DNA of 64,000 nt, from assembly GCA_003820375.1 (NCBI GenBank), contig RPQH01000001.1:36874-100873 (forward strand), read 5' to 3'. Positions within the stretch are counted from its first letter, which is position 1; each line of letters starts with the position of its first letter. This document shows, in pieces, positions 7,732-49,231 of this stretch. This stretch comes from Ignavibacteriota bacterium (lineage in GTDB: Bacteria > Bacteroidota > Ignavibacteria > Tepidaquicellales > OLB5). Made by a program: the position numbers and the translations under genes. The notes under the pieces are model-generated. The model ran no database searches. It saw nothing but the letters and a program-made list of their open reading frames with translations, and was not told where the DNA came from.

Positions 7732-7870
7732 CTCTTTTTCACTTCAAAATTTGTAAAAAATTCTTTATTTGGTAACTATTTACCTCTAAGTTATAATAAA
7801 ATAAGGCATCTGTCAAAACAGGCACTAAAAAAAGTTAAGTCTTAATAGAATAATGTATTTAACCAAAAAA
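7732..7870. repeat. Copy A of a ~140-bp direct repeat (partner at 36132-36271), just downstream of the last type III gene
   Basis: By-eye alignment: ctctttttcacYtcaaaatt..aactatttacctctaagttataataaaataaggcatctgtcaRaacaggcactaaaaaaagttaagtct.. Identity roughly 85-90%. Confidence 0.8.
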
Positions 7871-21300: not shown

Positions 21301-22132
21301 GCCTTATGATGTTTTTAGTATTTTAAAAGCATGTTGGATTAATTGGTTAGATAGATGGGATAATGGTAAAAGAATAAACTTAATCATCAGTGATAAAGAT
21401 AAGAGTAGTTATTTTAACCAGACTATCGGGAACGAGAAGTATAGTATTTTTCATGGAGATTATTCCAGCAAGGCTTTAAAACTAAATTATAATGAAAGAT
21501 ATGTAATATTTGACAGGCATGGTGATACACACTTTGATATTAAAAGTCAGTTGAAATGTTTCGAATTTGGTAATCTTTTTTATCAGACATATGAAAAAAA
21601 CAATGATGATTTTAATATTCTTAATCAATGTCAATTAAATGAGTTAAGTTATTATCAATTAATTGAAGCAGCATTGGTTAAAATTTTAATAGCTGATGAA
21701 AGATTATGTGCCTATATGAATGATAAACTTAATTCAATTAATACAAATTACAATATCATCAACGAGAACTATGAATTAAACTCACATGGGGCGGCTCTCA
21801 CTAATATTTTCTTTGTAAACTCATTAGAAAATAACATTATAAGCAAAACAAATGCTTCATATGCATGCTATATCAATAATGATAAAGTTACTTTTAATTT
21901 TTTAAATAAAGAAATCAAAACATATTTTGATTGTATTATAGTTCATAGAACATTTATTAATGAACATCTATTAAGAAATTTGAGAACAATAATTCCAAAT
22001 ATTATTATTACCTCCGGCGGGGGCTCAATTCAGAGAGATGAAAAGTATAAGTTTAAACCTTTAAGTCTTTTCCAGGGATTAACATCAAATCATTTCTCGA
22101 AAATAACATTAACAAAAAATGCTTTAACATAA
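18374..22132 (+). CDS. Giant (1252 aa) histidine-kinase-like GHKL ATPase protein with receiver-like flanks
   Basis: H-box-like AVSSIFARNYSHNIGAHV. N-box-like FFSILENIIRNSSKHNKK ~190 aa downstream. VIVYDNISEA and RKQLGIKDMKINAHLL at the G1/G2-box positions (degenerate). N-terminus KKILIFDYYENIL. C-terminus VKILIADERL...DCIIVHRTF...IIITSGGG...KFKPL resembles a (pseudo)receiver. Confidence 0.5.
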   Translation: MENKSKKKILIFDYYENILRYLMKKLGDIRIRYEVIFIKMNNGKSVLKQLQDHVPSFVFYQPFDFSSILEPDMQFLEKYILPFLKNKNCNVLFYYYIYNKSNTSDIANNVYNKFQSFIQQNVHKKNNSNINFINTADFYVKPNKSSSNLKTGESYLDYQLKRLDYLYKPLKEKNDNDRQINDEDLVDDIHNPIKNDYAANLDNELLDEYTSFISDLITDYILHCDYIDNKVEGYFNLDNLKFLKFKNLYIDKLKDIQVFNGDEYNTIKLSLGKLTFYDQMGNLLLDIPYKKYYNNLNAYVKEHKLLKYLFSENINRYEKGKNYIFYEFYYYNDANKITLKINNCFYRINSKTKNLENADDILKKWLRILFSEVYYLNFYNKDQNIWNEININGNIVNSIIQQSSSLYGESPFYFVFFFEELDIAGQKGTVNYCLYSDSVQINALRGNRIPINENNIEEFTDRIYSDIRPLIISRAQESIFPLINNQIRKLAVQSAVSSIFARNYSHNIGAHVDNRTYYNDIIFNLNNLYGAKAINDNRKLIDVWIHLMKDLMKNYSIKRNEFLADYQHPPKNLLLYEDIILPFVENMLLMNNIASSEDIMYFKNGNCIENKLKIKVNINGNELSAQYPDMRCIVDCDELIEYPDHFPYVYCYKGLSNPNNCEIEDLTNILKTKIILGNDIEISITNEHAFFSILENIIRNSSKHNKKILEDESELLIQINVYDTDLVDNKKDNNFYHVIVYDNISEAKLCDIWEFKRTIESSIINIETAQLERKQLGIKDMKINAHLLCSSEEINDDILKKSLEVVIIDRSIKGPAEIIFNPLQYRNYDELLKDIKEHYYGDFDIDNYKFSFGYKFKLQKSKKIMWVVGNDLKIDGKVIDEFQEKGVTIFSYQEDLSSNLSKTIASYQFIVFEREYFKNFSDEDYISFERCLTKLPFRLLLNSEDDDFNEYLSKLINSRRIQLVKNKIHFLDSNNEPYDVFSILKACWINWLDRWDNGKRINLIISDKDKSSYFNQTIGNEKYSIFHGDYSSKALKLNYNERYVIFDRHGDTHFDIKSQLKCFEFGNLFYQTYEKNNDDFNILNQCQLNELSYYQLIEAALVKILIADERLCAYMNDKLNSINTNYNIINENYELNSHGAALTNIFFVNSLENNIISKTNASYACYINNDKVTFNFLNKEIKTYFDCIIVHRTFINEHLLRNLRTIIPNIIITSGGGSIQRDEKYKFKPLSLFQGLTSNHFSKITLTKNALT

Positions 22133-25100: not shown

Positions 25101-27295
25101 ATTTCAATCTGCATTCGTCTCATTCATTTTAAAGCCAACATCATTTTCACAAACTAGCGGCTCCACTAACAAGTTTCAATCGGCATTCGCCTCATTCATG
25201 TAAAAAGGCAGATAAGACCACCGAAATCACAACAAAGAGAAGAGTTTCAATCGGCTATCGCCTCATTCATGTAAAAAGTTCAGCTTCAAAGATTGCTATC
25301 ACTTCCAACAAGGAGTTTCAATCGGCCTAAGCCTCATTCATATTTTAACTAAAAATAAACCCGAAAACGTAAAGGTTCATACTTACGGTTTCAATCGGCT
25401 TTCGCCTCATTCATGTAAAAAGCGAAAAGTCATCGTATCAAAGGGGTCAACCAAAGAGTTTCAATCGGCTTTCGCCTCATTCATGTAAAAAGACTTTGCA
25501 ATGACAAATGTTCAGGGAAGCTTCTATAAAGGTTTCAATCGGCTTTCGCCTCATTCATGTAAAAAGTCACCATATTCGGTGAATTCTGGGGAAATCGTAA
25601 ATTGAGTTTCAATCGGCTTTCGCCTCATTCATGTAAAAAGCCTTCAAGACTTCATAAACGATAACACCACAGTTTCAATCGGCTTTCGCCTCATTCATGT
25701 AAAAAGAAAGAATGCTGTTATCTCAGTAATAAATCCTGAGTTTCAATCGGCTTTCGCCTCATTCATGTAAAAAGACAAAACGTGTAATTGCCAATAAGTC
25801 CAAATCCAGGTTTCAATCGGCTTTCGCCTCATTCATGTAAAAAGGATGACCCATGAAGAAAAGATGAAAGAAATTGAGTTTCAATCGGCTTTCGCCTCAT
25901 TCATGTAAAAAGATATATTCTGAAAAGGTACAACCTATCATTAAAGTAGAGTTTCAATCGGCTTTCGCCTCATTCATGTAAAAAGGTTATTTCGCAATCA
26001 ACATATATTTTAATTAAGCGTTTCAATCGGCTTTCGCCTCATTCATGTAAAAAGTATCATTACTTATAATTGAACCAACTCCAAATTTTCTTAGGTTTCA
26101 ATCGGCTATCGCCTCATTCATGTAAAAAGAAATAGATACTGCTTATGTGAAAACCGGATACGTTTCAATCGGCTTTCGCCTCATTCATGTAAAAAGAATG
26201 AAGCTCAGCCACCTATTGTGGTTGAAAAAGAGTTTCAATCGGCTTTCGCCTCATTCATGTAAAAAGAACAGTTTCAACAGCCCGTGACTTATAACTACGG
26301 AGTTTCAATCGGCTTTCGCCTCATTCATGTAAAAAGTCATTTGGACAAGGCTGGACCACAGAGTTCAATTGCGGTACGTTTCAATCGGCTTTCGCCTCAT
26401 TCATGTAAAAAGGGGAGAGCAAAAGAATCGCAATCTCACTCGAGCGTTTCAATCGGCTTTCGCCTCATTCATGTAAAAAGGGGACAGAACCTGAAAAGGT
26501 TGATTTCATTCACTGGAGTTTCAATCGGCTATCGCCTCATTCATGTAAAAAGGGTAGTAAAACTGTCAACGCAGTTTGCCACAAAGGGGCAGTTTCAATC
26601 GGCTTTCGCCTCATTCATGTAAAAAGTCTTACTGATTACGCTACAAAAACGTATGTTGATGAGTTTCAATCGGCTTTCGCCTCATTCATGTAAAAAGGAG
26701 AAAAGGACAAGATTGAACGGAAAATTCGGATAATGAGTTTCAATCGGCTTTCGCCTCATTCATGTAAAAAGCTTTGAACTGGTATAACTTCAAATACATT
26801 TCACAAGAGTTTCAATCGGCCTTAGCCTCATTCATGTAAAAAGATATCAATTCCGAAACCCAGAGAAACCGTTGAACAGGGGGTTTCAATCGGCCTTAGC
26901 CTCATTCATGTAAAAAGCTGCACATAAAGGAGTATTTAATGAAATCAATTACGTTTCAATCGGCTTTCGCCTCATTCATGTAAAAAGTCTGATTTCGAAT
27001 ACGGCATGGTTACAATACACAGCGTTTCAATCGGCTTTCGCCTCATTCATGTAAAAAGATACAGAGATTGCGAAACATTCGGTTCGTACGCGGAGTTTCA
27101 ATCGGCCTTAGCCTCATGCATGTTTTAACTACGACTTTGTCGTAAACTTAAGCACCGATGAATACCGAGTTTCAATCGGCTTTCGCCTCATTCATGTTTT
27201 AACAACAGACCTGGTGCAAGCGGTAAGATAAATGCGTTTCAATCGGCTTTTCCTTAGATTCCGTCTTCAGCGGGAAGCCTCATTCAGTTTTCTGA
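25101..27295 (-). CRISPR. CRISPR array 2: 31 repeats, directly abutting the 3' end of cas6-RT
   Basis: Plus-strand consensus is GTTTCAATCGGCTTTCGCCTCATTCATGTAAAAAG (35 nt), with spacers ~32-39 nt. The first unit at 25101 is degenerate, and a further probable relic repeat lies at 25031-25064. The last three units (27087, 27159, 27236) are variants. The unit at 27236-27295 carries a 25-nt loop insertion and ends 8 nt from the cas6-RT stop. Confidence 0.95.
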
Positions 27296-29182: not shown

Positions 29183-29773
29183 CTCCTAATCGGCCTTAGC
29201 CTCATTCATATTTTAACATTATGAACGCTGGTTTTGCCAAAGTTTATGAGGAGTTTCAATCGGCTTTCGCCTCATTCATGTAAAAAGTCCAATACGGAGT
29301 ATCTGAATTAGCTCAAGAGGTTTCAATCGGCTTTCGCCTCATTCATGTAAAAAGTCCAATACGGAGTATCTGAATTAGCTCAAGAGGTTTCAATCGGCTT
29401 TCGCCTCATTCATGTAAAAAGAAAACACCAAGTTGAATAACAAACCCACATTACTGAGTTTCAATCGGCTTTCGCCTCATTCATGTAAAAAGACCTTCCA
29501 TGAAGATTATGGTTATATTCTCAGGAGTTTCAATCGGCTTTCGCCTCATTCATGTAAAAAGAATTATTGGACTTTTGTTGTTTATAGCAATTCGTTTCAA
29601 TCGGCTTTCGCCTCATTCATATTTTAACGCGGAAAATACGATGAGCATCCTACAGGCAATGAGGGAGTTTCAATCGGCCTTAGCCTCATTCATATCTTAA
29701 CGACCTTGTCGCAGGTATCACAGTTTCAGGATGGCAGGAGTTTCAATCGGCCTTAGCCTCATTTTATACAAAT
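29183..29773 (-). CRISPR. CRISPR array 3a: 9 repeats (mixed repeat families), includes a tandemly duplicated spacer
   Basis: Repeat starts: 29183 (5' end degenerate), 29253, 29320, 29387, 29458, 29527, 29594, 29667, 29739. The last diverges after ..cctcatt. Confidence 0.9.
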
Positions 29774-30146: not shown

Positions 30147-31402
30147 TTCCTAATCGGCCTTAGCCTCATTCATGTAAAAAGTGCTGGCTGTTTCGATATA
30201 GCTAGTAATAATAGTGTTTCAATCGGCTTTCGCCTCATTCATGTAAAAAGAATGAGCAGTGACCAGGGGAATACCTTCTTTTCGGTGTTTCAATCGGCTT
30301 TCGCCTCATTAATGGTCAGATCTTAGTTACAAGTTTTACAGGTTTCAATCGGCTTTCGCCTCATTCATGTAAAAAGTTTGAGCACACAGGCACAGGAACT
30401 TCAAAATCTGAGCGTTTCAATCGACTTTCGCCTCATTCATGTAAAAAGCATCATCAGCCATCATATTCGTTAAATGACTTTTTCACAGAGTTTCAATCGG
30501 CTTTAGCCTCATTCATGTAAAAGGGTTTACCCTTAAACGCCAATGTCAATGTGTCAGAGTTTCAATCGGCTTTCGCCTCATTCATATTTTAACATGGTTA
30601 CGGGTGCGACAGCGGATAACTTTGCGTTTCAATCGGCCTTAGCCTCATTCATATTTTAACTGACGATTCATCCTTCATCAAGGATGACTTCTGTTTCAAT
30701 CGGCCTTTCCTTAGATCCCGTCTTCAGCGGGAAGCCTCATTCATATTTTAACGTGGAAGAAAAACAGACACCACCTCCAGTTACTTTGTTTCAATCGGCC
30801 TTAGCCTCATTCATATTTTAACTGATTCAATAAACTTTATGTCTCTTGGCAAACCGACTATTGGAGTTTCAATCGGCCTTAGCCTCATTCATATTTTAAT
30901 TAATGTTCCAATTCCAGTTTGCTTCGATATTAATGAGTTTCAATCGGCTTTCGCCTCATTCATGTAAAAAGAAGAAATTGCTAAAAAGTTGGACCTGGCC
31001 CGGTGTTTCAATCGGCTTTCGCCTCATTCATGTAAAAAGTTTGACAAGAAGTTTGCCAAAGGTACTGAGATAGATAAGTTTCAATCGGCTTTCGCCTCAT
31101 TCATGTTTTAACTGAATATGTAGTGATTACCAATACTGCCACCGGCGCAGTTTCAATCGGAGTTAGCCTCATTCATGTTTTAACGCAAAGAGACAGCCTG
31201 TGGTGGATATTTGATTCAAAGAGGTTTCAATCGGCCTTAACCTCATTCATATTTTAACTTTGGGCCGAAGTTGTAGGGTTACCATAGGATCAATGTTTCA
31301 ATCAGCCTTAGCCTCATTCATATTTTAACATAAACTTTGACACACGTAAGCCAAGCGAAAAGCAGATGTTTCAATCGGCCTTAGCCTCAATCTATGCAAA
31401 TA
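30147..31402 (-). CRISPR. CRISPR array 3c: 18 repeats (both repeat families, chimeras, one loop-insertion repeat, one truncated repeat)
   Basis: Repeat starts: 30147, 30216, 30287 (truncated after cctcatt), 30342, 30414, 30490, 30559, 30636, 30703 (60-nt insertion variant), 30788, 30866, 30937, 31005, 31078, 31150, 31224, 31295, 31368. Confidence 0.9.
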
Positions 31403-34775: not shown

Positions 34776-36062
34776 GTTTTCAATCGGCTTTCGCCTCATT
34801 CATGTAAAAAGTACAGTAGATTATCATATATAACGGTATGACGTTTCAATCGGCTTTTCTTTAGATCCCGTTTTTAGCGGGACGCCTCATTCATGTAAAA
34901 AGCACTTATAATGATATGCTGACAACTGTGAACTTTTAGTTTCAATCGGCTTTCGCCTCATTCATGTAAAAAGGAGATATGCCCTGGAGTAACACCGAGC
35001 TTACCGAGTTTCAATCGGCTTTCGCCTCATTCATTTAAAAAGTTATCAAGTAGAAATAGTTTCTATACTTGGCAAAGAAGAGTTTCAATCGGCTTTCGCC
35101 TCATTCATATAAAAAGGCAGTCGCAAAGCCAGGAGATGAAGCAGGAGCAGAAGAATGAGTTTCAATCGGCTTTCGCCTCAATCATGTAAAAAGACACAAA
35201 GACAATAAATTCAGGATAAAAGACCCCAAGTTTCAATCGGCTTTTCCTTAGATCCCGTCTTTAGCGGGACACCTCATTCATGTAAAAAGGAAGAAAATAT
35301 TGAACCAAGCTCTTCATTGCCTGAGTTTCAATCGGCTTTCGCCTCATTCATTTAAAAAGGACAAACTTCGTCCAGTTCGACATTCCAGAGGGAGTTTCAA
35401 TCGGCTTTCGCCTCATTCATGTAAAAAGTTCGTGTATGAAAAAACATTTAACAGGCCGGTCAACATGTTTCAATCGGCTTTCGCCTCATTCATGTAAAAA
35501 GTATAGGCGTATATTATACGAGCACACTAGACGGAGTTTCAATCGGCTTTCGCCTCATTCATGTAAAAAGGAAGAACGAAGCTCAGCCACCTATTGTGAT
35601 TGAGAGTTTCAATCGGCTTTCGCCTCATTCATGTAAAAAGAGACGAGTTCCACCATTCCGTTACATATAAATGGTTTCAATCGGCTTTCGCCTCATTCAT
35701 GTAAAAAGGTAAATAGCGAATCTACAACTAGCGCAAAGAGGTTTCAATCGGCTTTCGCCTCATTCATGTAAAAAGATGTTCCATTCAGTGAGAGATGATT
35801 TGCGCGAAATTGTTTCAATCGGCTTTCGCCTCATTCATGTAAAAAGTAACTGCAATCCATCCAAATATGATTTGCAAGAGTTTCAATCGGCTTTCGCCTC
35901 ATTCATGTAAAAAGTTATTTGTAATCGTGAATTCGTATTCTCAAAAAATCAGCGGTTTCAATCGGCTTTCGCCTCATTCATGTAAAAAGGAAGTCTTGGT
36001 TCTGACTCAGATTGGAATCTTAAGGGAGTTTCAATCGGCTTTCGCCTCATTCATGTAAAAAG
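34776..36062 (-). CRISPR. CRISPR array 4: 18 repeats; units nearest 36062 are identical, variants cluster at the low-coordinate end
   Basis: Repeat starts: 34776, 34843 (insertion variant), 34939, 35008, 35082, 35159, 35230 (insertion variant), 35325, 35394, 35467, 35536, 35606, 35674, 35741, 35812, 35880, 35955, 36028. Consensus is GTTTCAATCGGCTTTCGCCTCATTCATGTAAAAAG. Confidence 0.95.
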
Positions 36063-36131: not shown

Positions 36132-36271
36132 CTCTTTTTCACCTCAAAATTAGTAATAAATTCTTAATATGTCAACTATTTACCTCTAAGTTATAATAAA
36201 ATAAGGCATCTGTCAGAACAGGCACTAAAAAAAAGTTAAGTCTCAATAAAATAAAGTACTTAACCAAAAAC
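36132..36271. repeat. Copy B of the ~140-bp direct repeat (partner at 7732-7870), between array 4 and the first integrase
   Basis: See copy A. This copy contains the array 4 promoter boxes. Confidence 0.8.
36147..36175 (-). promoter_or_regulatory. Putative leader promoter of array 4 (TTGACA-N17-TAATTT, extended TAATTTTG)
   Basis: Plus-strand tgtcaa at 36170-36175 and aaatta at 36147-36152 with a 17-nt spacer. It lies ~85 nt from the first repeat, the same layout as the array 1 leader. Confidence 0.4.
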
Positions 36272-36347: not shown

Positions 36348-37607
36348 TTACAAGGTACTATACTTAATATTATTTATCTTCTCTCTCTCAATCTCAATAT
36401 CCGGATGCAAGTAACCGGATGTAGTTGCTATATCCGCATGACCTGCCATTTTTTGTGCGTTATCGAGAGATATTCCGTTGTGCAGCCAGTTTGTAAAACA
36501 TGTATGTCTGGTTGAATGAAAAACATATTGCCTCTTTGGAAAGCCAAGTTTCCTGATAACACTATTAAGGTAATGGCTTGCAGATTGCTTGTTATAAAGT
36601 TTGCCAAAGATGTAATTGTCTAAATTAAAGTTCTTCGAATTTACCATTTCATTATATAGAGCAAAAATAACTTCAAATACCTCTCGTGTTAGTATTACTT
36701 CACGGTTTTCATAGTCCTTAAGTGTAAAGCCAGGTTTATTTTCAACTCTTATGTATCCTTTTATTTCAAATTCATATTTTTGCCATTCTTCGTTTGTAGA
36801 TGATATATAAATTTTATATATGTCAAAAATCGTATGTCTATTAGAAAAGACAAAATCATTAAATTGAAGATGGAGTATTTCATCGAGTCTCATACCCGTA
36901 TTGAATGCTATAATTGCCACTGCTTTCATTTTAGGTCTTTTGATAGCATTTATGATTTTAGACGCATCACTGTTATTGAATATTCTTCTTGGCTTTTGTG
37001 GAATTGGCAGAGGTTCCAAATTATCGCAAGGATTATTAACCAGATAGTCATAAAATACTGCTTGCCGGAAAATATGATGTAAGTTACGCAAGTCTATATT
37101 TACAGAGACAGGGGAGATTGGCTCATTTGCTTGTCTATTTGATGACTCTTTAACATTTCGTCTATTCATGGTCTTACGCATGTTCTTAAATTTATTTATA
37201 TCATCAAAGCAGTACATGTTAATAGGTTTATTTCCTATGAACTCAAGAAAGTAGTTAATAGTAAGTCTGTAGTTGTTTCTGGTACCTTTACTATGGCTGT
37301 TTTGCATTTCCTTTATTATCAGCGATGCAAATTCTTTGAAATTTAATATGCATTTTCTATTATTTAATGAATCTGTTTTTACTTTAAAGGAATTCATGTA
37401 TTCCCGCAGCTTAGTTTTCGAATTTATCCAGGCAGGCGGCATATGATACTTTCTCACCTTTAGTAGATTTCCATTTAAATCAGTTTTCTCTTCGTACCAA
37501 TAGAAGCACATCTTTTTGCCAACAACAATATTATTGCCAAAGTCATCTTTTAAATATTTTCCATTATGACCTTTTTTATAAAGATTTCTTTTATATGTAT
37601 TAAACAT
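36348..37607 (-). CDS. Tyrosine recombinase/integrase (phage-integrase family)
   Basis: C-terminal catalytic block NTGMRLDEIL ... FHSTRHTCFTNWL ... AGHADIATTSGYLH (R...HxxR...Y). Confidence 0.85.
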   Translation of the reverse strand: MFNTYKRNLYKKGHNGKYLKDDFGNNIVVGKKMCFYWYEEKTDLNGNLLKVRKYHMPPAWINSKTKLREYMNSFKVKTDSLNNRKCILNFKEFASLIIKEMQNSHSKGTRNNYRLTINYFLEFIGNKPINMYCFDDINKFKNMRKTMNRRNVKESSNRQANEPISPVSVNIDLRNLHHIFRQAVFYDYLVNNPCDNLEPLPIPQKPRRIFNNSDASKIINAIKRPKMKAVAIIAFNTGMRLDEILHLQFNDFVFSNRHTIFDIYKIYISSTNEEWQKYEFEIKGYIRVENKPGFTLKDYENREVILTREVFEVIFALYNEMVNSKNFNLDNYIFGKLYNKQSASHYLNSVIRKLGFPKRQYVFHSTRHTCFTNWLHNGISLDNAQKMAGHADIATTSGYLHPDIEIEREKINNIKYSTL

Positions 37608-37764
37608 TAATTATTAATTGCTTGGTAAAAGTTAAAAGAAATTATTTTGCAATATTCCAAATCATATTGGAATAAATGTTTATTTAAGAATGATAATATA
37701 TTTAGTTTAAAGTTTACTTGAATATCATATTAAGATACTTTTATAGTATGATAAAATGTAAATC

Positions 37765-39024
37765 TTAAAGACTACTATATCTAATCTTATTAAACTTTTC
37801 TCTTTCAGCTTCAAAATCCGGATGTGCATAACCTACTGTTGTTAGCGGTGAAGCATGTCCTGCGATTGCTTGTACTGTATCTAAGGGAATGCCTGCATGC
37901 AGCATATTAGTCAATGCTGTATGTCTTGTACTGTGAAATACATATCTTCCGGCAGGAAACCCAAGTGAACGAATAACTTTATTTAGGTATTGGGATGCAG
38001 TATTTTTGTTCAATAAAGAGCCAAGTATGTAACCATTAAGGTTAAATACATTTGCATCAGCCATCTTTATATACTCTTCAAAAACAATTTCAAATACTTC
38101 CCAGATTAAAATGACGTTACGATTGTCGTGATCTTTTAGCGTGAAATTGGGCTTGTTTTCAATCTTTATATGGTCTAAAATACTCATGGCAAATTCCTTA
38201 AATTCATCAGGTGTACATGCTTTGAATCGTATGTAAATTGTTTGCCAGTGATAATCATCTTTGAATACAAAATCGTCAAACTGTAAATGCAGGATTTCAT
38301 TTAACCTCATTCCTGTATTTAATGCAATAATTGTAGCAATTTTCAATTTTGGTCTTTTTATAGCATTTAAAATGAGAGGAATATCTCTATTAGAAAAATT
38401 ACGTCTTGGTTTTTGAGCCACAATTTCATGAGTAACTTTGCTGCAGGGATTCTTCAGCATGTAACCTGAATTTACAGCTTCTTCAAATATATGATGCAAA
38501 TCCCTGAGCTCTATATTGACCGTGACAGGGGAGATAGGCTTGTAAGGTACATCCTTATTTTTAATGCATAAATTCGACATGACCTTTCTTAAATTTTTAA
38601 AATTAACAATGTCATCATATGTGTACATTTTGATCGGTTTATTACCTACCAGACTGATGAAATAACCGCAAGTACGTTGATATATGCTTTTTGTGCTTTT
38701 ACTGTAACCGTTTTCCATTCCCTTAATCAGGATATCTGTATATGATTTGAAATCCATTACTTCTGCGTTTTTAGGAATTGATGAGTCCGGGATAACATAG
38801 GTTTTAAGGTATTTATTTAAATCAGCTTTTGTTTTAACCCAGTCTGGCGGCATATGTGTTTTTTTCTCTTTTTTTAATTTACCGTCAGCAAACTTTTCTT
38901 CATACCAGTAAATTGAAAGCTGCTTTCTTAAAACAATATTTTTTCCATTGGCTTCTTTTAAATATTTTCCATCAGTTCCTTTTTTGAATATTTTTCTTAT
39001 GTAAGTATTAAATACTTTTTGCAT
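37765..39024 (-). CDS. Tyrosine recombinase/integrase, paralogue of the adjacent gene
   Basis: The catalytic block is NTGMRLNEIL ... FHSTRHTALTNML ... AGHASPLTTVGYAH. It is colinear with 36348-37607 over its full length. Confidence 0.85.
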   Translation of the reverse strand: MQKVFNTYIRKIFKKGTDGKYLKEANGKNIVLRKQLSIYWYEEKFADGKLKKEKKTHMPPDWVKTKADLNKYLKTYVIPDSSIPKNAEVMDFKSYTDILIKGMENGYSKSTKSIYQRTCGYFISLVGNKPIKMYTYDDIVNFKNLRKVMSNLCIKNKDVPYKPISPVTVNIELRDLHHIFEEAVNSGYMLKNPCSKVTHEIVAQKPRRNFSNRDIPLILNAIKRPKLKIATIIALNTGMRLNEILHLQFDDFVFKDDYHWQTIYIRFKACTPDEFKEFAMSILDHIKIENKPNFTLKDHDNRNVILIWEVFEIVFEEYIKMADANVFNLNGYILGSLLNKNTASQYLNKVIRSLGFPAGRYVFHSTRHTALTNMLHAGIPLDTVQAIAGHASPLTTVGYAHPDFEAEREKFNKIRYSSL

Positions 39025-39274
39025 AAAAGTTACTCCTCTTGGTAACCGGCTTTATAAAGCCATATACCATTATAATGTTTGAAAAAGTTGGGTGACACCC
39101 AGGGTGACACCTGAGACCTAATAAATTGTTAAATATATACTTGCATAATGCAAGTATAAAAATATTTGAGTTTGTAAATTTGTTATTCTATACAAATATA
39201 TCATATTTTTAATATAAATGCATAATGCAACAAATATTAATTTTCCGTTTTCGTCGTCTGAAAAGCCGTGTGTC

Positions 39275-39299
39275 GTCGGTTCAATTCCGGCCCTGTCCA
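39275..39299 (+). pseudogene. tRNA (or tmRNA) 3' fragment: T-arm + acceptor 3' strand only
   Basis: Reads GTCGG-TTCAATT-CCGGC-CCTGTCC-A. No matching 5' acceptor (GGACAGG), D-arm or anticodon arm could be found upstream on this strand. Confidence 0.5.
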
Positions 39300-39384
39300 C
39301 AACAAACACTATGGAAATGACATTTTTCTGTGGTGTTTTTTTATTTCCTGCCAAGAGGTTATACCATGGGTCATATCGGGAGGG

Positions 39385-39415
39385 CACGTTGCTTTACCAA
39401 CTGAGCTACCTGTCG
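39385..39415 (-). pseudogene. tRNA 5' fragment: acceptor 5' strand + D-arm only
   Basis: The minus strand reads cGACAGG-TA-GCTC-AGTTGGTA-AAGC-A.. and then cannot be folded into an anticodon or T arm. Confidence 0.45.
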
Positions 39416-39577
39416 AATCAATTATCTCCAATCCTACCGCAAACATTCTGCAAAAAAGGAGATAAACAATGTTTTTATCAAAAACGCATTACAAAAAGTA
39501 TTTTCAACTCCACTACCAAGATGAATACGGTAATATACACAAATATACCAAAATAAGTTTCATAAAGCATTAATAGA

Positions 39578-40099
39578 CTATTTTGGTATTCTTTTCTTTA
39601 TCAGGTTTATCTGCCCCCTGTGGTTGATTTCATCTTCAAAAACATGAAACCACAGGAAATAGTTATTAACGGGCTGATTGTTCCAAAAGGGAAATTCCTC
39701 ATATAGCCATTCATCGTTAACTGTTTTTAGCTTATCAAGGGTTTTATCTCTCATTGTTTTCATTTCATTGAGATAATACTCAAGGCTATAGCCTTTATAT
39801 TTATCCCAACCTTCTTTACCCATAACCGTTGAGGCATGCCACTCAGCATCTTCTTCGGGAGTCAGCTCTCTTTTCTCAAATGAATGCTTTTGAAAATAAA
39901 ATTCGGTTCCTGTAATGTGCATCAAAAGAGTACCGATAGTATTGGCTTTTTCATCAAGAATAAAATCAAGTTGTTGAGTAGTCAGTCCTTCAATTGCCCA
40001 AAGAGTTGTTTGCCTGGCATAATTCATCATTGAAACCAAGCGGCTTATCTCGGTGGTATAACCTTCAATATCAGTAATCAGAAAATCAGATTTTGCCAT
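39578..40099 (-). CDS. DinB-family (DinB_2) metal-dependent protein
   Basis: LLMHITGTEFYF ... WFHVFEDEINHRGQI histidine triad pattern. Confidence 0.65.
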   Translation of the reverse strand: MAKSDFLITDIEGYTTEISRLVSMMNYARQTTLWAIEGLTTQQLDFILDEKANTIGTLLMHITGTEFYFQKHSFEKRELTPEEDAEWHASTVMGKEGWDKYKGYSLEYYLNEMKTMRDKTLDKLKTVNDEWLYEEFPFWNNQPVNNYFLWFHVFEDEINHRGQINLIKKRIPK

Positions 40100-40427
40100 T
40101 TGTCATTATTAATTTGGAATCAAGCTTTACATACCCGTTGTATGCCAAACGGTATTTATTTCAATAAAGTTTTGAATGTTGTACCTTATCACTTAACCCA
40201 TGCAACTCAGGGAATATATTTAATTCTAAATGTTTGCCCTTTTGTTTTTTATTGGTGGCCCTTGCTATTCTTAACAGATTGGCCAAATAAATAATCTTAA
40301 AGCTGGATAAAAATGGCATAATAATTAAAAGAATTCTTACTGCTTGTAATATAGATTATGAAGCTAAATTCGTATATTAAATAATAAATCTTTTTGATAT
40401 AATTATATAACTCTTAATATACGAATT

Positions 40428-42664
40428 ATGAAAATTATCTGCACTTTACTTCTTGTTCTTTTTTTTTCTGTAAATTCTTATTCACAAACTGGTACTTACA
40501 CCTGGCTTCACCCTAAGCTTACAGCAGAACGTCTTAATGCTATTAATATTAATGGAGTTAATATATTCGTTGTTGGCAACGCAGGCGTTCTAATGATGAG
40601 TACAAACAGCGGCGCAAACTGGGTTTTTAAAAAAGTAAATGATACAACTTTTCATGATGTATTCTCAATTGGAAATGATGTTCATATTGCCGGTGGCAGT
40701 TATGATAACAGGTCAATACGCCATTATTCCAAATCAACTAACAACGGGGTAACTTTCACTTCTCTGACCCAAAACACAATTGTAACCCCCGGCGATACCC
40801 TGAATTTAAGAGCAGTGTATTTTACAGACGCCAACACCGGTTATATTGCAGGGGCAAGCGGCAAGATGTTCAGAACAACAAACGGTGGCTTGAACTGGGC
40901 TTCGGTTATAACGGGAGTTACCACAACCATTAATAAGCTTTATTTCCCGGCTTCAGGCACAGGAATGACAGGCTTTGCAATTGGCGGTTCAGGTGCAACA
41001 GCTTTTTTTCTTAAAACAATTAACGCAGGATTAAACTGGACTTCAACTACTTTATCAGCCAATCCCACCGGAAGTAATGCAACAACAATGCACTTCATTG
41101 ATGCTAACACCGGCTATATTGCAGGCGGCAGTTCTATATCTCCAATTACAACGGCTTTAAAAACTACCGATGGAGGTGCTTCATGGACTGTTTTTGATAT
41201 AGATGCTCTAAACCCTAATATCAGATATGAACTCTTCGGAGTATATGTGCTTAATGAAAATCTTGTTTATGCTGCTGGAGCCAATGGAAACATCATCCGG
41301 ACTACCGATGGCGGTGCTTCATGGCAAAAGCTTTTCCCTGAAAGTAACCTTGCTTATCAATCAGCTTACCTGACAGGTATGTCTTTCATAGGAAACACAG
41401 GATATATCAGCGGCGCGGGCGGTACAATCATAAAGGTGCAGGATACTTCCATCACGTTTATGTATGGTGAAATTATGAAACATGCTTACGATGTCCGCTT
41501 CTCAAAAACAGATTCGCTGCTCGGTTTCGTAGTAGGAGGTGGTCAACGTCAAAGCACAGGACAAACAGTTTATTACGCTTTGCTTGATAAAACCACTAAC
41601 GGCGGTGCAACTTGGACTCCTCAAATTCTTTCAAGCTCAAATATCATACTCAAAGGTATTGAAATGATTGATAACAATAACATCTGGGTTTGCGGAGATT
41701 CAGGAAAAGTTATGCGCACAACCAACAGCGGTAATTCCTGGGAATTAATTAATATAGGGGCAATTGAAAATTTAGAAGATATTCGTTTCAAAAATGCTTC
41801 AACCGGTTTCATTGGCGGTAACGGAAGAATTTTCCGTACTACTAACGGCGGTGCAAACTGGACTTTTTCAACTTTCACAGGCGGAACAAACGTGCGTGAA
41901 ATGGATATTACTCCAAACAGTACTATTGTTGCTGGTGTTAACGGTGCGTTCACCCAACGCTCTACAGATAACGGAGTAACATGGGTTTCAGCAACTGTGC
42001 CTAATTCCAATTACCCTCATAACGTTTATTTCTTAAATGATACATTAGGATGGGTTTGCGGATTGATTGCTAATATTGCAAGAACTACAAACGGTGGTAT
42101 ATCATGGACAGCACAAACCTCCGGAATATTTGCCGGTTCTCTTGATGGTGGAATGCATTTCTGGGACGTTAATAACGGCGCAGCCTGGGGTCTTACAGGA
42201 CTTGTACTTAGAACTACTAACGGGGGTGTTAACTGGTTCAAAACTTATCCATTCACACAAATGGGTGCACGCAATGTTTATTTTGCAAATAACAACCGCG
42301 GGTATATAACAACCGATATGGGCGGTTTGATGAGCTTTACTAATCTTATGACTTCGATTATTCAGGTCTCAACTGAAACTCCGAACGAGTTTAAGTTATG
42401 CCAGAATTATCCGAACCCGTTTAATCCTGTAACTAAAATTGTCTTTTCCATTCCTCCCTCGGGTGAGGCAAGGGGAGTGACTGATATTACCCTGAAGATT
42501 TATGATATCCTTGGAAGAGAAATTACACTCTTGTTAATGAAAAATTAAAGCCCGGTAATTATGAGGTTGAATGGAATGCTTCAAATTACCCAAGCGGAAT
42601 ATATTTTTATAAACTGATAAATGGTGAATACTATGAAACAAGAAAAATGGTTCTAATAAAATGA
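40428..42664 (+). pseudogene. BNR/Ycf48-like repeat secreted protein with a T9SS C-terminal sorting domain, interrupted by a 1-nt frameshift near 42533
   Basis: Signal peptide. About 12 TTNGG(A/L)NW repeats. NYPNPFNP...KIYDILGREITLL, then a stop at 42546. The +2 frame continues VNEKLKPGNYEVEWNASNYPSGIYFYKLINGEYYETRKMVLIK* to 42664, completing the domain seen intact at 58156 and 60807. Confidence 0.75.
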
Positions 42665-42745
42665 AGATTTTGTTTTTTTGGATAAGGTAAATATAATATA
42701 AAAAGGAGGCACATTGCTTCCTTTTTTATATTATATGGAAATAAA

Positions 42746-43079
42746 ATAGGTGAATGCAAACTGGGCAAAACTGATAAAAATGGTATTTCAGAAACAGATG
42801 TAAAGCTTTTACCGCAATATTGGAACAAGGGTTATGGCACAGAAATTAAAGCCGCATTAGTTAAATACCTGTTTGAAAATACTGATTGCAGGGGAGTGAA
42901 AGCAACTCCAAATAAGAAAAATATTGCTTCTCAAAAAATTGCAGGAATCAGTTGGAGCAAAAAGAGTGTCTGAAGGGAAATATGTTTTTCCTCAAAGTAT
43001 GAAATCATTTACTGTCGGCGTGGAATATTACAAATACATTGTATATAAAGATGATTGGGTGAAAAATAATTTAAAGTGA
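42746..43079 (+). pseudogene. GNAT (RimJ/RimL-like) acetyltransferase remnant: N-terminally truncated and frameshifted
   Basis: Reads IGECKLG..DVKLLPQYWNKGYGTEIKAALVKYLFENTDCRGVKATPNKKNIASQK. It then shifts frame at an A-run to LQESVGAKRVSEGKYVFPQS...VKNNLK*. There is no start codon and no N-terminal half. Confidence 0.55.
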
Positions 43080-43158
43080 AAAAATCCTAAAAAGCCATGT
43101 ACCACCATTTCAATTCCGACTCTGTCCTTTCTAACTTCTAACTTCTAACTTCTAACTT

Positions 43159-44694
43159 CTAACTAAATCCCATAACCGGTAAAATTATTCTCAATCCCAG
43201 CCATATCAGAAATCCCCCTGCAATATCAAATATAAATCCTGCTTTAATCATTTTCCGGATTGGTACAAGTCCTGTTCCGTAAACTATTGCATTGGGCGGA
43301 GTGGAAACAGGCAGCATAAATCCCCAGCTTGCTCCTAATGTTGCTCCCAATGCGGGAGGTATAGGATTCACACCTGCAGCTATTGCAATTGATATCATCA
43401 CAGGGATAACCATGTTCGCAGATGCTGTATTGGATGTTGCTTCGCTTACTATTATAGAGATAAATATTGAGGCAAGTGTAATACCCCATAACGATTCTGC
43501 TCCGCTAATATCTGTTAAGCTCTTGCCAATTACATCTGCAAGCTTTGTCTCGAACATTAATCCGCCAAGTGATAATCCGCCTCCGAATAGTAATATTGTT
43601 CCCCAGTTTATTTTGACTGCATCTTTCCATGTTATTGTAAATTTTCTCCCGCTCCAGTTTACAGGTAATAAAAACAGCAGTATTGCTCCAATCAATGCAG
43701 GCACAGCTTCTGGCATATACCTGTTGATTGATTTGAACTGTTCTGAATTTCCGCCGTAAATAACTGCAATTATTCCGGGGAGTATCCAGAGAAATACGGT
43801 TATCAGGAAAGCGGCCACTGTATTTACCTGACCCCTTGTCCATTTCCCAAGCTTTTTCTTTTCTACATCAATGAACTCATTGCTTCCTTCTATTACTTTC
43901 GCCTCCGGCTTGTTCAGATAATACATCAGCAAAAATAAAAATATGTACATGATTATAAGCATAGGTACTGCTATTGTCATCCACTGGAAAAAAGTAAAGC
44001 TGTAACCTGTGAATTTCTGTATCATTGCTATGCCTATTATATTGGGAGGTGTGCCGACCGGGGTTCCAATACCACCTGTAGATGATGCATAAGCAGCCAT
44101 CAGCATTAAACCCGTTCCGAAACCCATTTTACGCTTATCCTTCAAGGATGCTGTATATACGGATACTATACCTATACCTATTGGCATCATCATTGCAGTT
44201 GATGCTGTATTGCTTATCCACATTGATATAAAAGCACATATAAAACCGAAAACAAATAAAATTCTCGCTGTTTTACTTCCCACCCATTTCAGAGACATTA
44301 AGCTGTATGCAAAACGTTTATCCAGTCCATGAAGAGACATTGCTTTTGCAATCATAAAGCTTCCGATAAAAAGAAATATCAGCGGGTCAGCAAAGGGAGC
44401 AAATACCTGCTTTGCATCTCCGGCACCGAGCAATACACAGAGCACAGCACCAAGCAGTGCGGTAACCGGAATCGGCACCGGCTCTGTTACCCACCATATA
44501 ACAACAAATGCAATGACGGATGCAAGCACATGCGCACGGAAATCCAGGCTGCTAATGGGAATAAAATAAATTATTATTGCTGCAATGGGACCGAGGAAAA
44601 GTCCGATTATACTTCTTATCTTTTCGAACCTCTCTTCAGACGGAGTGATAACTTCCCGGAATTCTTCCGGTGGTTTATTTGAAGTTTCATGCAT
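43159..44694 (-). CDS. DASS/SLC13-family anion (di/tricarboxylate or sulfate):Na+ symporter
   Basis: Polytopic membrane protein with two SNT hairpin motifs (ISNTASTAMMMP, ATSNTASANMVIP). Confidence 0.75.
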   Translation of the reverse strand: MHETSNKPPEEFREVITPSEERFEKIRSIIGLFLGPIAAIIIYFIPISSLDFRAHVLASVIAFVVIWWVTEPVPIPVTALLGAVLCVLLGAGDAKQVFAPFADPLIFLFIGSFMIAKAMSLHGLDKRFAYSLMSLKWVGSKTARILFVFGFICAFISMWISNTASTAMMMPIGIGIVSVYTASLKDKRKMGFGTGLMLMAAYASSTGGIGTPVGTPPNIIGIAMIQKFTGYSFTFFQWMTIAVPMLIIMYIFLFLLMYYLNKPEAKVIEGSNEFIDVEKKKLGKWTRGQVNTVAAFLITVFLWILPGIIAVIYGGNSEQFKSINRYMPEAVPALIGAILLFLLPVNWSGRKFTITWKDAVKINWGTILLFGGGLSLGGLMFETKLADVIGKSLTDISGAESLWGITLASIFISIIVSEATSNTASANMVIPVMISIAIAAGVNPIPPALGATLGASWGFMLPVSTPPNAIVYGTGLVPIRKMIKAGFIFDIAGGFLIWLGLRIILPVMGFS

Positions 44695-46552: not shown

Positions 46553-49231
46553 ATGGCAATACAGTCGAAATTCAGAACTGAAGCGGAAAGAAAATCAACC
46601 AAAGATACAGATCACTTCACAGACAGGGAATTCTATAAAGAGCAGTTCAGGGTTGCATTTGAAAATAATCAAAATGATATACACAACTTACTGGTCTATT
46701 ATGGTGTGGGTGGTATAGGCAAAAGTGCATTAAGAAAAGAGATACAAAAAATTATAAGCGAGGAATTTAAAAGTGTTATATTTCAGAGCATTGATTTTGA
46801 TCTTAGTGTATACAGACAGGAAGAGACTGCACTTTATTATTTGAGAAAAAACTTTAAAGATAGTGCTAAGATATCGTTTCCTACATTTGATATTGCCTAT
46901 GCAGTTTATTGGCAGAAGATCCATCCTAACACACCTCTTACAAAAGAATCATTATCACTTCTGGAGGACAGCAGTATTGTAATGAGCCTGATATCTACAC
47001 TTGGACAGATACCATTAGTAGGACTGATTCCCGGAATTACCAAAACTATTATTAAAAGTACCAAAAAGCTTCAGGAATGGTGGACTAAAAGAGGGCAGAA
47101 AGATTTATATAATCTTCCTCAATTGGAAGCAAAAGATATACTGGTCCGTCTGCCGATGTTTTTTGCTTCCGACCTTAAAGAACATATAAGAGAAAATAAT
47201 TCCAGATGTGTTATTCTTTTTGATACATATGAGGCATTGTGGGAGAATGTCAAATCTGAGAGTAGTTTCTTTTTATTCGATGAGTGGATAAGAGAGTTGG
47301 TGTCAGAGCTTCCGGAACCGCTCTGGATATTTTTCGGAAGGGAAAGGCTTAGATGGAGTGAATTAGATATGGAATGGGAGCAGTATATTAAACAGCATCT
47401 TATTGGAGGATTAACTGAAACGGATTCTAAACAGCTTCTTTGCTCATACAATATTATTAATGAAAATATTCAGAATATTATAGCTAAAGCAAGTGAAGGA
47501 GTGCCCTATTACCTTGATCTTGCAGTCGATCAGTATAATCAGATAAAGAATAATTTAAAAAAAGAGCCTGAAGAAAGTGATTTCGCTGTAACACAGAATG
47601 ATGTACTTTCCAGATTTTTAAAGTATCTTGATAAAAATGAAATTGAGACCCTGAAAGTACTATCGGTAGCAAGGAAATGGAATGCGGAAATATTTGCTCT
47701 GTTAATAGACAGGTTTCAAACCGGTTACCCGGTTACAGCTTTGAATGAACTGGCAAGGTTTTCATTCATTCAATTCAATGAACAGAAAAACAGTTATAGA
47801 ATTAATACCCTGATGGCTGAGGGTCTTAAGACAAAAATGGAAGATCAAATAAAGACCCAAATTCATAAATGCCTGTTTAAATATTATAAAGAAATACTTG
47901 AAAAGCTGGATACGAAAAATATAACGGCTGAAGCAAGCAGTGCACTTAATGAGGCGTTCTACCATGGGAAAAGAGTTTTTGGCATAGCTGAATTTACTGA
48001 ATGGTTTTATAAAATTTTTCATAACTTCAGTGAAGCAGGAAAATGGAGAGAGCTTACTCCGTTAATGGAGGATCTTTCTGAGATTATCTTTCAGCAAAAA
48101 GGAAATGACAGTTTGCTATATGCAGAAAGCCTTAATAAAACTGCAGCTCTGCTCATACAGTTATTTCAGCTTGATAGAGCTGAAAACATGCTTCAGACTG
48201 CTTTAGAAATTTACGAAAAGACAGGAAATTCAAATGAACTGGGTGTATCATCTGTAACCACCAATCTTGCAAAGCTGTTTAAAGAATCAGGAAAATATGA
48301 AGAAGCAATTAAACTATATAATAAAAATATTGACTTATTCAGAAGCTTAGGGTTATCAGATAATGAAAAATATGCTGAACTTTTAGATAATCTAGGTTCA
48401 GTTTTGAGAGATAGCGGAAGGTATAATGATGCTATTGAAACACATGAAAAAGCGTTGGAGTTAAAGAAAAGAATATTCGGAGAGAAACATCAGGAATGTG
48501 CAAGGACTGTAAACAATAAAGCTATCACATACGCAATCATGAATGATAAAAAAATGGCTAAGCGTATGTTTGAGGAAGCACTGAGTATTACTGAGAAGGT
48601 GTATAATTCTAAACATCCATTATATGCTGCTATAATAACTAATCTTGGAAGTATTTATTTTGATGAAGGTCAGTACGAAAAAGCTTTAGAATTTGGTAAA
48701 CTGGCCCTGGAAATTAAAGCGGAAATTTATGGGGAAAACCATACGGTATATGGAACATCGCTGGGTAATATTGGAAGTGCTTACCAGAGGATAGGAGAAT
48801 ATGAAAAATCATTGGAATGCCATAAAAGAGAAATGGAAATTTTCAAAAAGTTGTGCGGAACATCTCATTACAATTACCTCTTCAGCATCTCTAATATTGC
48901 CGTTGTATATATATCGTTAAAACAATATTACAATTGCCTGTCAGTTTGCAAAGAAATTAGAGAGATTGGGATTGACATCAGAGATTTTAATAAGGAGTTG
49001 TATGCTCTAATTTTCAGCTGTGAAATAAAAGCTTATCAAGAAACAGGTGAATATGAAAATGCCATAACTGCATGCGAAGATTATATTGAACTAATGACTG
49101 ATAAGACTGTAGAGACATCAGTAATACCATATTTAGAAACCTGTAATGATATAATTAATATCTACGAACAAACAGGCAAGGCAAAGGAAGCAGAAGATTT
49201 AAGAAGGAAGATTTCAGACAATAATCTATGA
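46553..49231 (+). CDS. STAND-type P-loop NTPase with C-terminal TPR (KLC-like) repeats
   Basis: LLVYYGVGGIGKSAL Walker A ~45 aa from the N-terminus. CVILFDTYEALW Walker B. C-terminal repeated ..Y.EA...Y.KAL.I......G..H.. TPR units. Confidence 0.7.
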   Translation: MAIQSKFRTEAERKSTKDTDHFTDREFYKEQFRVAFENNQNDIHNLLVYYGVGGIGKSALRKEIQKIISEEFKSVIFQSIDFDLSVYRQEETALYYLRKNFKDSAKISFPTFDIAYAVYWQKIHPNTPLTKESLSLLEDSSIVMSLISTLGQIPLVGLIPGITKTIIKSTKKLQEWWTKRGQKDLYNLPQLEAKDILVRLPMFFASDLKEHIRENNSRCVILFDTYEALWENVKSESSFFLFDEWIRELVSELPEPLWIFFGRERLRWSELDMEWEQYIKQHLIGGLTETDSKQLLCSYNIINENIQNIIAKASEGVPYYLDLAVDQYNQIKNNLKKEPEESDFAVTQNDVLSRFLKYLDKNEIETLKVLSVARKWNAEIFALLIDRFQTGYPVTALNELARFSFIQFNEQKNSYRINTLMAEGLKTKMEDQIKTQIHKCLFKYYKEILEKLDTKNITAEASSALNEAFYHGKRVFGIAEFTEWFYKIFHNFSEAGKWRELTPLMEDLSEIIFQQKGNDSLLYAESLNKTAALLIQLFQLDRAENMLQTALEIYEKTGNSNELGVSSVTTNLAKLFKESGKYEEAIKLYNKNIDLFRSLGLSDNEKYAELLDNLGSVLRDSGRYNDAIETHEKALELKKRIFGEKHQECARTVNNKAITYAIMNDKKMAKRMFEEALSITEKVYNSKHPLYAAIITNLGSIYFDEGQYEKALEFGKLALEIKAEIYGENHTVYGTSLGNIGSAYQRIGEYEKSLECHKREMEIFKKLCGTSHYNYLFSISNIAVVYISLKQYYNCLSVCKEIREIGIDIRDFNKELYALIFSCEIKAYQETGEYENAITACEDYIELMTDKTVETSVIPYLETCNDIINIYEQTGKAKEAEDLRRKISDNNL

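Follow-up and report, generated by a model that had tools for sequence, protein, structure and literature searches.

The locus described here lies in a stretch of 64,000 nucleotides from an Ignavibacteriota bacterium (contig RPQH01000001.1). This whole stretch is called the window, and all positions are counted from its first letter. Two tandem genes for tyrosine recombinases, int1 and int2, stand beside the two halves of a tRNA-Phe(GAA) gene, which are found on opposite strands 87 nt apart, at 231-391 bp from the int1 start. An AT-rich region full of defence genes lies to the left of the integrases, and a host-like flank with a third, decayed tRNA-Phe fragment lies to the right. On balance, and with a good deal of room for doubt, we take the locus to be the scrambled tRNA-Phe(GAA) attachment (att) site of integrase-borne DNA. 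The features are listed in Table 1, where the halves are labelled a (5') and b (3') and the decayed copy c.

Table 1. Features of the tRNA-Phe locus and its surroundings, from left to right (nt, position in the tRNA; GC3, GC at third codon positions)
Feature	Position	Strand	Description
int2	36348-37607	-	419-aa tyrosine recombinase; PF00589 (E 3.2e-18), Phage_int_SAM_5; phrog_1 integrase (E 1.4e-41)
int1 (RPI19856.1)	37765-39024	-	419-aa tyrosine recombinase; PF00589 (E 4.9e-19); phrog_1 (E 1.1e-44, residues 6-413)
Arm region (P)	39025-39255		231 bp, from the int1 start to the tRNA 3' half
3' half (b)	39256-39299	+	tRNA-Phe(GAA) nt 30-73; direct reading, ARAGORN call once joined to a
131-bp segment	39256-39386		b, terminator and 45-nt x; inversion restores a minus-strand tRNA-Phe
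Terminator-like hairpin	39304-39345	+	14 pairs and T-run, directly after the tRNA 3' end, same strand as b
5' half (a)	39387-39415 (read 39415 to 39387)	-	tRNA-Phe nt 1-29; acceptor 5' strand, D arm, first 3 nt of the anticodon stem
DinB/MST-family gene (RPI19857.1)	39578-40099	-	PF04978/PF12867; GC3 0.35; on the 5' side of a, host-like flank
BNR/YCF48-like repeat protein	40428-42548	+	PSII_BNR, Sortilin-Vps10 and BNR in Pfam; GC3 0.34
GNAT acetyltransferase pseudogene	42752-43079	+	PF13302 (E 4e-9), profile positions 84-132 of 138; frameshift, 5'-truncated; ends 6 nt before c
Decayed 3' copy (c)	43085-43128	+	tRNA-Phe, in register with nt 30-73; similarity from C32 (43087) to C72 (43127)

The 3' half reads GT-CTGAAAA-GCCGT-GTGTC-GTCGG-TTCAATT-CCGGC-CCTGTCC-A and opens with the final two bases of the anticodon stem's 5' strand. 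The anticodon loop and the 3' strand of the stem come next, followed by the variable loop, the T arm, the acceptor 3' strand and the discriminator A73. The anticodon GAA is found at 39260-39262. The 5' half reads CGACAGG-TA-GCTC-AGTTGGTA-AAGC-A-ACG. The break falls between nt 29 and 30, in the 5' strand of the anticodon stem, and no base is lost or duplicated there. The acceptor strands of the two halves pair at six of seven positions, and the joined tRNA is canonical apart from two mismatches, C1:C72 and C13:A22. ARAGORN calls a tRNA-Phe(gaa) on the joined halves, and also on the window when 39256-39386 is inverted in silico. When the junction is slid at constant length, the anticodon stem is paired 5/5 solely at 29|30; ARAGORN itself tolerates the neighbouring junctions.

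An earlier note on this DNA had described a plus-strand fragment, GTCGGTTCAATTCCGGCCCTGTCCA, at 39275-39299 and a minus-strand fragment, which lies at 39390-39414. Both are present, each is unique in the window, and neither was recovered in shuffled sequence (0/100). The note had also been unable to fold an intact tRNA here, which agrees with the programs: ARAGORN finds no tRNA or tmRNA gene (0 genes), and nothing reaches the gathering score in Rfam, the matches at E<=10 being at chance level. However, the two fragments are not incompatible, as the note had called them, but nt 1-29 and 30-73 of one tRNA-Phe(GAA). The note had missed that the 3' half reaches further, to 39256, and had missed the decayed copy at 43085-43128. 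A tmRNA, including a two-piece one, was considered and rejected, with 14.6 bits for tmRNA_permuted (gathering score 47), 7.9 bits for beta_tmRNA (gathering score 84) and no ARAGORN call. Three open reading frames (ORFs) run across the att region (39118-39387, minus strand; 39218-39556, plus strand; and 39309-39446, minus strand, called by JGI). They have no family support and were judged spurious.

Since the hairpin and its T-run follow the 3' half on the same strand, this half still carries the terminator of the gene. After inversion of the 131-bp segment the order becomes intact tRNA-Phe, terminator, 231-bp arm and int1-int2, the classical layout of a tRNA gene and its integrase. The earlier note had suspected an att region rearranged by inversion at an integrase-bearing edge beside a tRNA, and both ideas survive, as a single 131-bp inversion restores the tRNA-Phe and the tRNA-integrase layout. 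Copies of the att region were searched for in 93.5 kb, i.e. the window with sequence fetched on both sides (-20 kb to +73 kb). Because these 93.5 kb contain one undecayed 3' half, no single step other than the 131-bp inversion can rejoin a functional gene.

The decayed copy was located by a short-word BLAST of the att region against the 93.5 kb, which gave one suspicious match. Without gaps, c is identical to b at 31 of 44 positions, compared with a maximum of 27/44 in 200 Markov shuffles of the 93.5 kb. For the T loop and acceptor strand the agreement is 17/19, which was matched in 3 of 100 shuffles. Transitions make up 10 of the 13 differences, the anticodon has become AAA, and with the loss of its 5' strand the T stem no longer exists. 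No 5' half is found next to c; the 3' end of the GNAT pseudogene precedes it instead. The copy is the kind of 3' fragment that is displaced by integration at the anticodon loop and then left to decay. It is in direct orientation with b, and the pair brackets the terminator, the 5' half, the DinB and BNR genes and the GNAT pseudogene, not the integrases.

The two halves keep every canonical feature of a tRNA, whereas c shows about 25-30% decay. As a and b are undecayed, whereas a quarter of the positions of c have been lost, the joined gene must have worked until recently, and c is old. A tRNA composed of a and c, obtained by inverting 39387-43084, is not called by ARAGORN, and since decay has gone much further in c than in the 5' half, this inversion cannot have been the recent event. 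A likeness between the left flanks of b and c (14/40, in register, AT-rich) was judged non-significant. Directly after c, the heptamer TTCTAAC is repeated five times in tandem (43129-43163) and overlaps the stop codon of the symporter gene.

The tandem pair of 419-aa tyrosine recombinases, already recognised in the earlier note, is borne out by the PF00589 matches, by 51% identity across the full length and by the kept catalytic residues. Both are intact paralogs, in which R240, H364, R367, H390 and Y399 (R, H-x-x-R, H, Y) are invariant, and both match a SAM-like N-terminal domain. Among 5.8 billion clustered proteins, the sole relative of int1 above ~30% identity is int2. An exhaustive HMMER search found 16,518 tyrosine recombinases at E<=1e-3, and at E<=1e-30 seven cluster representatives, int1 included. 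The nearest further homolog has 26% identity and an uninformative gene context. Having no relatives above ~30% identity except each other, int1 and int2 thus sample a poorly known branch. A Xer-type pair, i.e. XerC/XerD dimer resolvases, was rejected, the best scores being 44-79 bits against NCBIfam equivalog cut-offs of 220-335. Most distant homologs align to int1 and int2 in two separate stretches with a break at about residues 255-288, and the alignments suggest an insertion in the catalytic domain, specific to this lineage, at residues ~255-290.

Within the arm region two motifs that are unique in the window occur twice each, GGTGACACC at 39091 and 39103 and TGCATAATGCA at 39142 and 39219. 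The best match to a sigma-70-like promoter for int1 runs from 39098 to 39069 (GTGTCA-18-TATAAT, 10/12). The tandem GGTGACACC motifs overlap its -35 hexamer and themselves form a small terminator-like hairpin on the minus strand (all within 39069-39111). The GGTGACACC motifs may be an operator that controls the integrase; more generally, the arm motifs may serve as operator or arm-type sites. No excisionase was recognised at the locus.

To the left of the integrases are clustered regularly interspaced short palindromic repeat (CRISPR) arrays with 75 repeats and a type III system with CARF effectors, and further left within the window a CARF-sigma54 regulator, a TraG/HerA-like ATPase, ArdC and HNH. 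The sequence could be extended leftward to window position -20184 via the JGI contig Ga0209819_10000032. There the AT-rich defence and mobility genes go on for at least 20 kb, all on a single strand: an HsdM-like methylase, a PD-(D/E)XK nuclease, an EVE-McrB-like AAA protein with McrC, a Phage_CRI rolling-circle Rep, a SNF2-PLD helicase and two Eco57I-type methylases. The proposal of the earlier note that a 39-kb block forms the whole element is not supported, as the block runs at least 20 kb past the left window end and no matching att copy was found between -20184 and 39255.

The shift in composition that the earlier note had placed at 39.4 kb is real, but it is not sharp and does not lie there. 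In 1-kb windows the GC content is 0.291 on the left (n=45) and 0.339 on the right (n=33, Mann-Whitney p=2e-7); 36% of the right windows fall inside the left range, and the change is gradual without a step at 39.4 kb. GC3 is 0.21 in the left block, 0.28-0.31 in the integrases, 0.34-0.35 in the DinB and BNR genes and 0.30 in the right flank. The spacers are indeed richer in GC than the island, as the note had said (0.39 for 64 spacers vs 0.29 for the left block).

Several further observations concern the arrays. A stretch of ~140 nt is present in two copies, at 7732-7870 and 36132-36270, with ~90% identity (102 nt at 92% in the repeat search). The second copy is in the position of a leader, since it follows the last CRISPR repeat (36027-36062) of an array whose repeats, on the minus strand, end in ATTGAAAC. 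The first copy lies just downstream of the type III cluster with no adjoining array, i.e. it is an orphan leader-like sequence. Four CRISPR repeats (27236-27295, 30693-30752, 34843-34902 and 35230-35289) carry an insert of ~25 nt in mid-repeat (GTTTCAATCGGC-TTTTCCTTAGATCCCGTCTTCAGCGGGAA-GCCTCATTCAT...). The insert has a small hairpin of its own, and the repeats that bear it are scattered among the normal 35-nt repeats. One spacer is duplicated, as two consecutive repeat-spacer units at 29253-29386 are 100% identical.

In the right flank, the 3' end of the BNR gene (42363-42451) has a nucleotide repeat in common with the genes at 55859-58156 and 59710-60807 (repeat families D13 and D20). The proteins of these two genes carry the Por_Secre_tail domain of the type IX secretion system (T9SS). 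Judging from the repeat that links the 3' ends, the BNR protein may have a T9SS tail as well; Pfam gave none. The 5' part of the GNAT gene is missing beside the BNR terminator, a further rearrangement scar at ~42.74 kb. Further right, two TPR-rich paralogs of ~890 aa (46553-49231 and 52586-55261) are found 6 kb apart with 72-74% nucleotide identity, and an intact tRNA-Pro(TGG) lies just past the right window end (64038-64114 in window coordinates).

The window is known from two assemblies. The NCBI metagenome-assembled genome (MAG), labelled Ignavibacteriae/Ignavibacteriota bacterium, holds the window proteins, among them the integrase RPI19856.1 and the DinB-like RPI19857.1, on a contig of 115 kb, and the JGI metagenome contig Ga0209819_10000015 (sample 3300027722) equals the window with 1 mismatch in 20.5 kb. 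In the JGI assembly the region is broken into two contigs that overlap by ~130 bp (window 19085-19217), inside a 1252-aa ORF of very low GC (18374-22132); in the NCBI contig they are joined. A single JGI contig carries the arrays, the integrases and the tRNA site along with the host flank.

No syntenic relative, in which an empty site might be seen, was found in a scan of genome contigs with DinB or in scans of metagenome and viral DNA. In the DinB scan, the best matches were distant Ignavibacteria MAGs at 60-65% identity, which have no common neighbours and no tRNA nearby; Paenibacillus and similar were also matched. Two exact-pattern scans of metagenome contigs for the tRNA-Phe, intact or variant, came back empty; the source contig itself was also unmatched, and the collection evidently does not contain it. 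The viral contigs gave neither tRNA piece nor a relative of the integrases, and other tRNA-Phe genes for comparison numbered 0 among 87 fetched loci.

According to the review PMC8371274, which cites Williams 2002 (PMC100330), the anticodon loop is one of three preferred places where tyrosine integrases cross over in tRNA genes, and the 7-nt loop and the stems on either side of it resemble the overlap and the core sites of these enzymes. Our best reading places an integration hotspot at this tRNA-Phe, next to an AT-rich region of at least 59 kb that is rich in defence genes. Long ago, DNA with the integrase pair, and probably with at least the proximal part of the AT-rich defence block, would have integrated at the anticodon loop of the tRNA-Phe gene. 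The host 3' part would have been displaced by that integration and have begun to decay into c. An older rearrangement, for which a large inversion is the most economical candidate, would then have moved c to the tRNA's 5' side, in opposite orientation. Finally, a recent and conservative inversion of 131 bp, with one end at the attL core and the other at a secondary site 131 bp further downstream, would have split the tRNA.

These steps can be written with L for the left block, integrases and arm, t for the terminator and the 45 nt after it, D for DinB, BNR and the GNAT remnant, and H for the symporter onward. The present order is L, +b, +t, -a, D, +c, H, and after inverting b and t it is L, -t, -b, -a, D, +c, H. 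A classical ancestor, with host flank D, the tRNA a+b, the island L and the displaced c next to host H, would be two inversions away from the present. On this path the recent inversion would end at the attL core (a|b), and the older one at, or a few hundred bases from, the junction of island and c. An alternative ancestor, in which D is an old small element between b and c, is likewise two inversions away.

The neighbouring integrase or integrases are the most likely makers of the 131-bp inversion, for which they would have cut the attL core and joined it to the secondary site in the arm. A tyrosine integrase of Thermococcus makes inversions that end in tRNA genes, and also inversions between non-att sequences (PMC5495485). 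That an integrase acted here is what we infer. The non-enzymatic alternative would be a template switch during replication, for which no microhomology is seen. This copy of the tRNA-Phe would be dead, so that another one should exist elsewhere in the genome, and with a broken attL core the adjacent DNA should no longer be able to excise. The flipped terminator would no longer insulate the integrase genes from the tRNA promoter.

A number of observations weigh against this history. The ends of the 131-bp segment carry no inverted repeat, and the junctions have CGT alone in common. Without an inverted repeat or a common overlap, the inversion is not a standard homology-guided site-specific reaction, and the integrase step stays uncertain. 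C1 of the 5' half faces C72, so that the tRNA homology possibly ends at nt 2; such an end would favour a local shuffle with three breakpoints over a simple inversion. Once the 131 bp are inverted, c is found in opposite orientation 3.7 kb upstream of the tRNA, which is why at least one earlier rearrangement is needed. The scans revealed no relative with the ancestral arrangement. The integrases are not bracketed by attL and attR: the only other copy, c, is on the wrong side, and the matching upstream att repeat that the earlier note had proposed to look for is missing from -20184 to 39255, 59 kb that contain neither a tRNA nor a copy of either half. The GC3 of the integrases is also host-like and unlike that of the AT-rich block.

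An unlikely alternative is the local three-breakpoint shuffle. In this case the ancestor would have had the order L, a, b, terminator, x, DinB-BNR-GNAT, c, host, with the tRNA-Phe on the plus strand. The 3.8 kb between the direct repeats b and c would be the remains of a classically integrated element, with the integrases upstream of the tRNA. Two small nested inversions, the first of 160 bp and the second of 131 bp, or a replication error by template switching would have moved and flipped the 29-nt 5' half. This would explain why b and c are direct repeats today and why c adjoins the host flank like a displaced attR copy. It would also give the C1:C72 mismatch a meaning, as a breakpoint at the start of the gene, and the GNAT pseudogene beside c resembles decayed cargo. 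However, the DinB and BNR genes have a host-like GC3, and the repeat at the BNR 3' end is shared with T9SS-tailed proteins of the right flank. The stretch from b to c holds no integrase, the model does not account for the two intact integrases on the tRNA's 5' side, and three precise breakpoints are required within 160 bp. We consider it improbable that the 131-bp segment is a reversible switch, operated by the integrases, that flips in the population and toggles both the integrity of the tRNA-Phe and the orientation of the terminator upstream of the integrases. In one orientation the tRNA-Phe copy would be present and the integrase genes insulated. In the other the tRNA would be dead, its promoter would read into the integrases, the att core would be dismantled and the defence island locked in. 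Such a switch predicts what is seen of the halves, both pristine while the truly dead c has decayed. Two recombinase genes that appear active lie 231 bp away, and the terminator at present does not face transcription from the 5' half. Examples of site-specific invertible DNA switches (invertons) are the fim switch and the promoter inversions of Bacteroides, and natural invertible segments can have about the length of this one. The likeness is in the short inverted segment beside tyrosine recombinase genes and in the reoriented transcription signal, here a terminator. Judged by its repeats, however, the segment is no inverton, as it has no flanking inverted repeats, and both assemblies show the inverted state alone. 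We know of no switch that kills an essential tRNA.

We give equally little credence to one large inversion, in which b would be an ordinary distal att junction. At the far end of the island, an intact tRNA would have been cut at its core, and the island flipped, so that the cut tRNA was joined to a secondary site 87 nt beyond the junction of b. The succession of arm, nt 30-73 and terminator does resemble a normal displaced att copy, and archaea are known to undergo large integrase-driven inversions that end in tRNA genes (PMC5495485). But a second undecayed nt 30-73 should then be found at the far end, and there is none from -20 kb to +73 kb; moreover, the second breakpoint would have to fall by chance within 87 nt of another att copy. 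That the 5' and 3' pieces are independent relics, from separate events or separate tRNA-Phe genes and close to each other by chance, has a very small probability in our judgement. Several events did take place at the locus, to judge from c and the GNAT pseudogene, but the pieces abut exactly at 29|30 without overlap or gap, whereas att-type duplicates that arose at one crossover should both contain the whole crossover region. In addition, both pieces are undecayed and their acceptor strands pair at 6/7. Least credible of all is an assembly artefact or chimera. The source is a metagenome and the JGI assembly does break elsewhere, at window 19085-19217, but the split-tRNA arrangement is identical in the NCBI MAG contig and in Ga0209819_10000015. 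The segment has no flanking repeat by which a graph assembler might be misled, so the reads must contain the junction k-mers.

With the conservative 131-bp inversion as the favoured last step, the locus can be set beside known systems. It has most of the features of the edge of a tRNA-targeted integrative element, and what it lacks, within the 59 kb covered, is the bracketing repeat on the integrase side. In PMC8371274, tRNA-targeted islands, prophages and integrative and conjugative elements of the matching type are described under sublocation I (Williams 2002), and like them this locus has a tyrosine integrase adjoining a tRNA gene. Further likenesses are the break and the start of the repeated tRNA block at the anticodon stem-loop, the displaced and decaying 3' copy, and the AT-rich neighbouring DNA loaded with defence and mobility genes. 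Unlike in such islands, the tRNA is split and half-inverted and not reconstituted, the att copies are not attL and attR around the integrase DNA, and there are two paralogous integrases, not one. The inversions made by the pTN3 integrase of Thermococcales (Cossu et al. 2017, PMC5495485) likewise have an endpoint inside a tRNA gene targeted by the integrase, and the pTN3 integrase can recombine non-att sequences too. Those inversions are large, however, and join two tRNA genes or homologies of at least ~100 bp, whereas here there is one tRNA endpoint, 131 bp and no homology at the junction. The archaeal SSV/pTN3-type integrases are also unrelated to int1 and int2 at the subfamily level.

tRNA genes in separate halves are known from Nanoarchaeum equitans, and permuted ones from Cyanidioschyzon. 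As in split genes, two halves are encoded apart here with a break near the anticodon. Nevertheless, a split or permuted gene was rejected: the halves are on opposite strands with a terminator between them, and the sequence that continues the 5' half at its 3' end (TGCCCTCCCGATATG...) shows no complementarity to the leader of the 3' half (...TTTTCCGTTTTCGTC). Further differences are that the host is a bacterium without archaeal splicing and that the break is at 29/30, not at 37/38. Modules with several recombinases include XerC/XerD pairs, recombinase-in-trio elements and the TnpA/TnpB of Tn554. The tandem tyrosine recombinase genes are similar in arrangement, and their products might act as a hetero-oligomer. 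Here, however, there are two close paralogs of the same architecture and not three distinct subfamilies, and terminal inverted repeats were not found. The locus is ordinary in kind, a scar left by mobile-element recombination where a defence region ends, and unusual in its details.

In practice, tRNA finders are silent at this site, and anyone delimiting the element simply by att direct repeats would arrive at the wrong segment. The locus offers a clean natural footprint of what an integrase may do to its own att site. The break is conservative and base-exact, and the older, decayed copy provides an internal clock. If the inversion was made by an integrase, it would be a bacterial counterpart of the integrase-driven inversions of Thermococcales, and it would show how a mobile defence island (type III CRISPR-Cas, restriction-modification, McrBC) can become fixed through scrambling of its att site.

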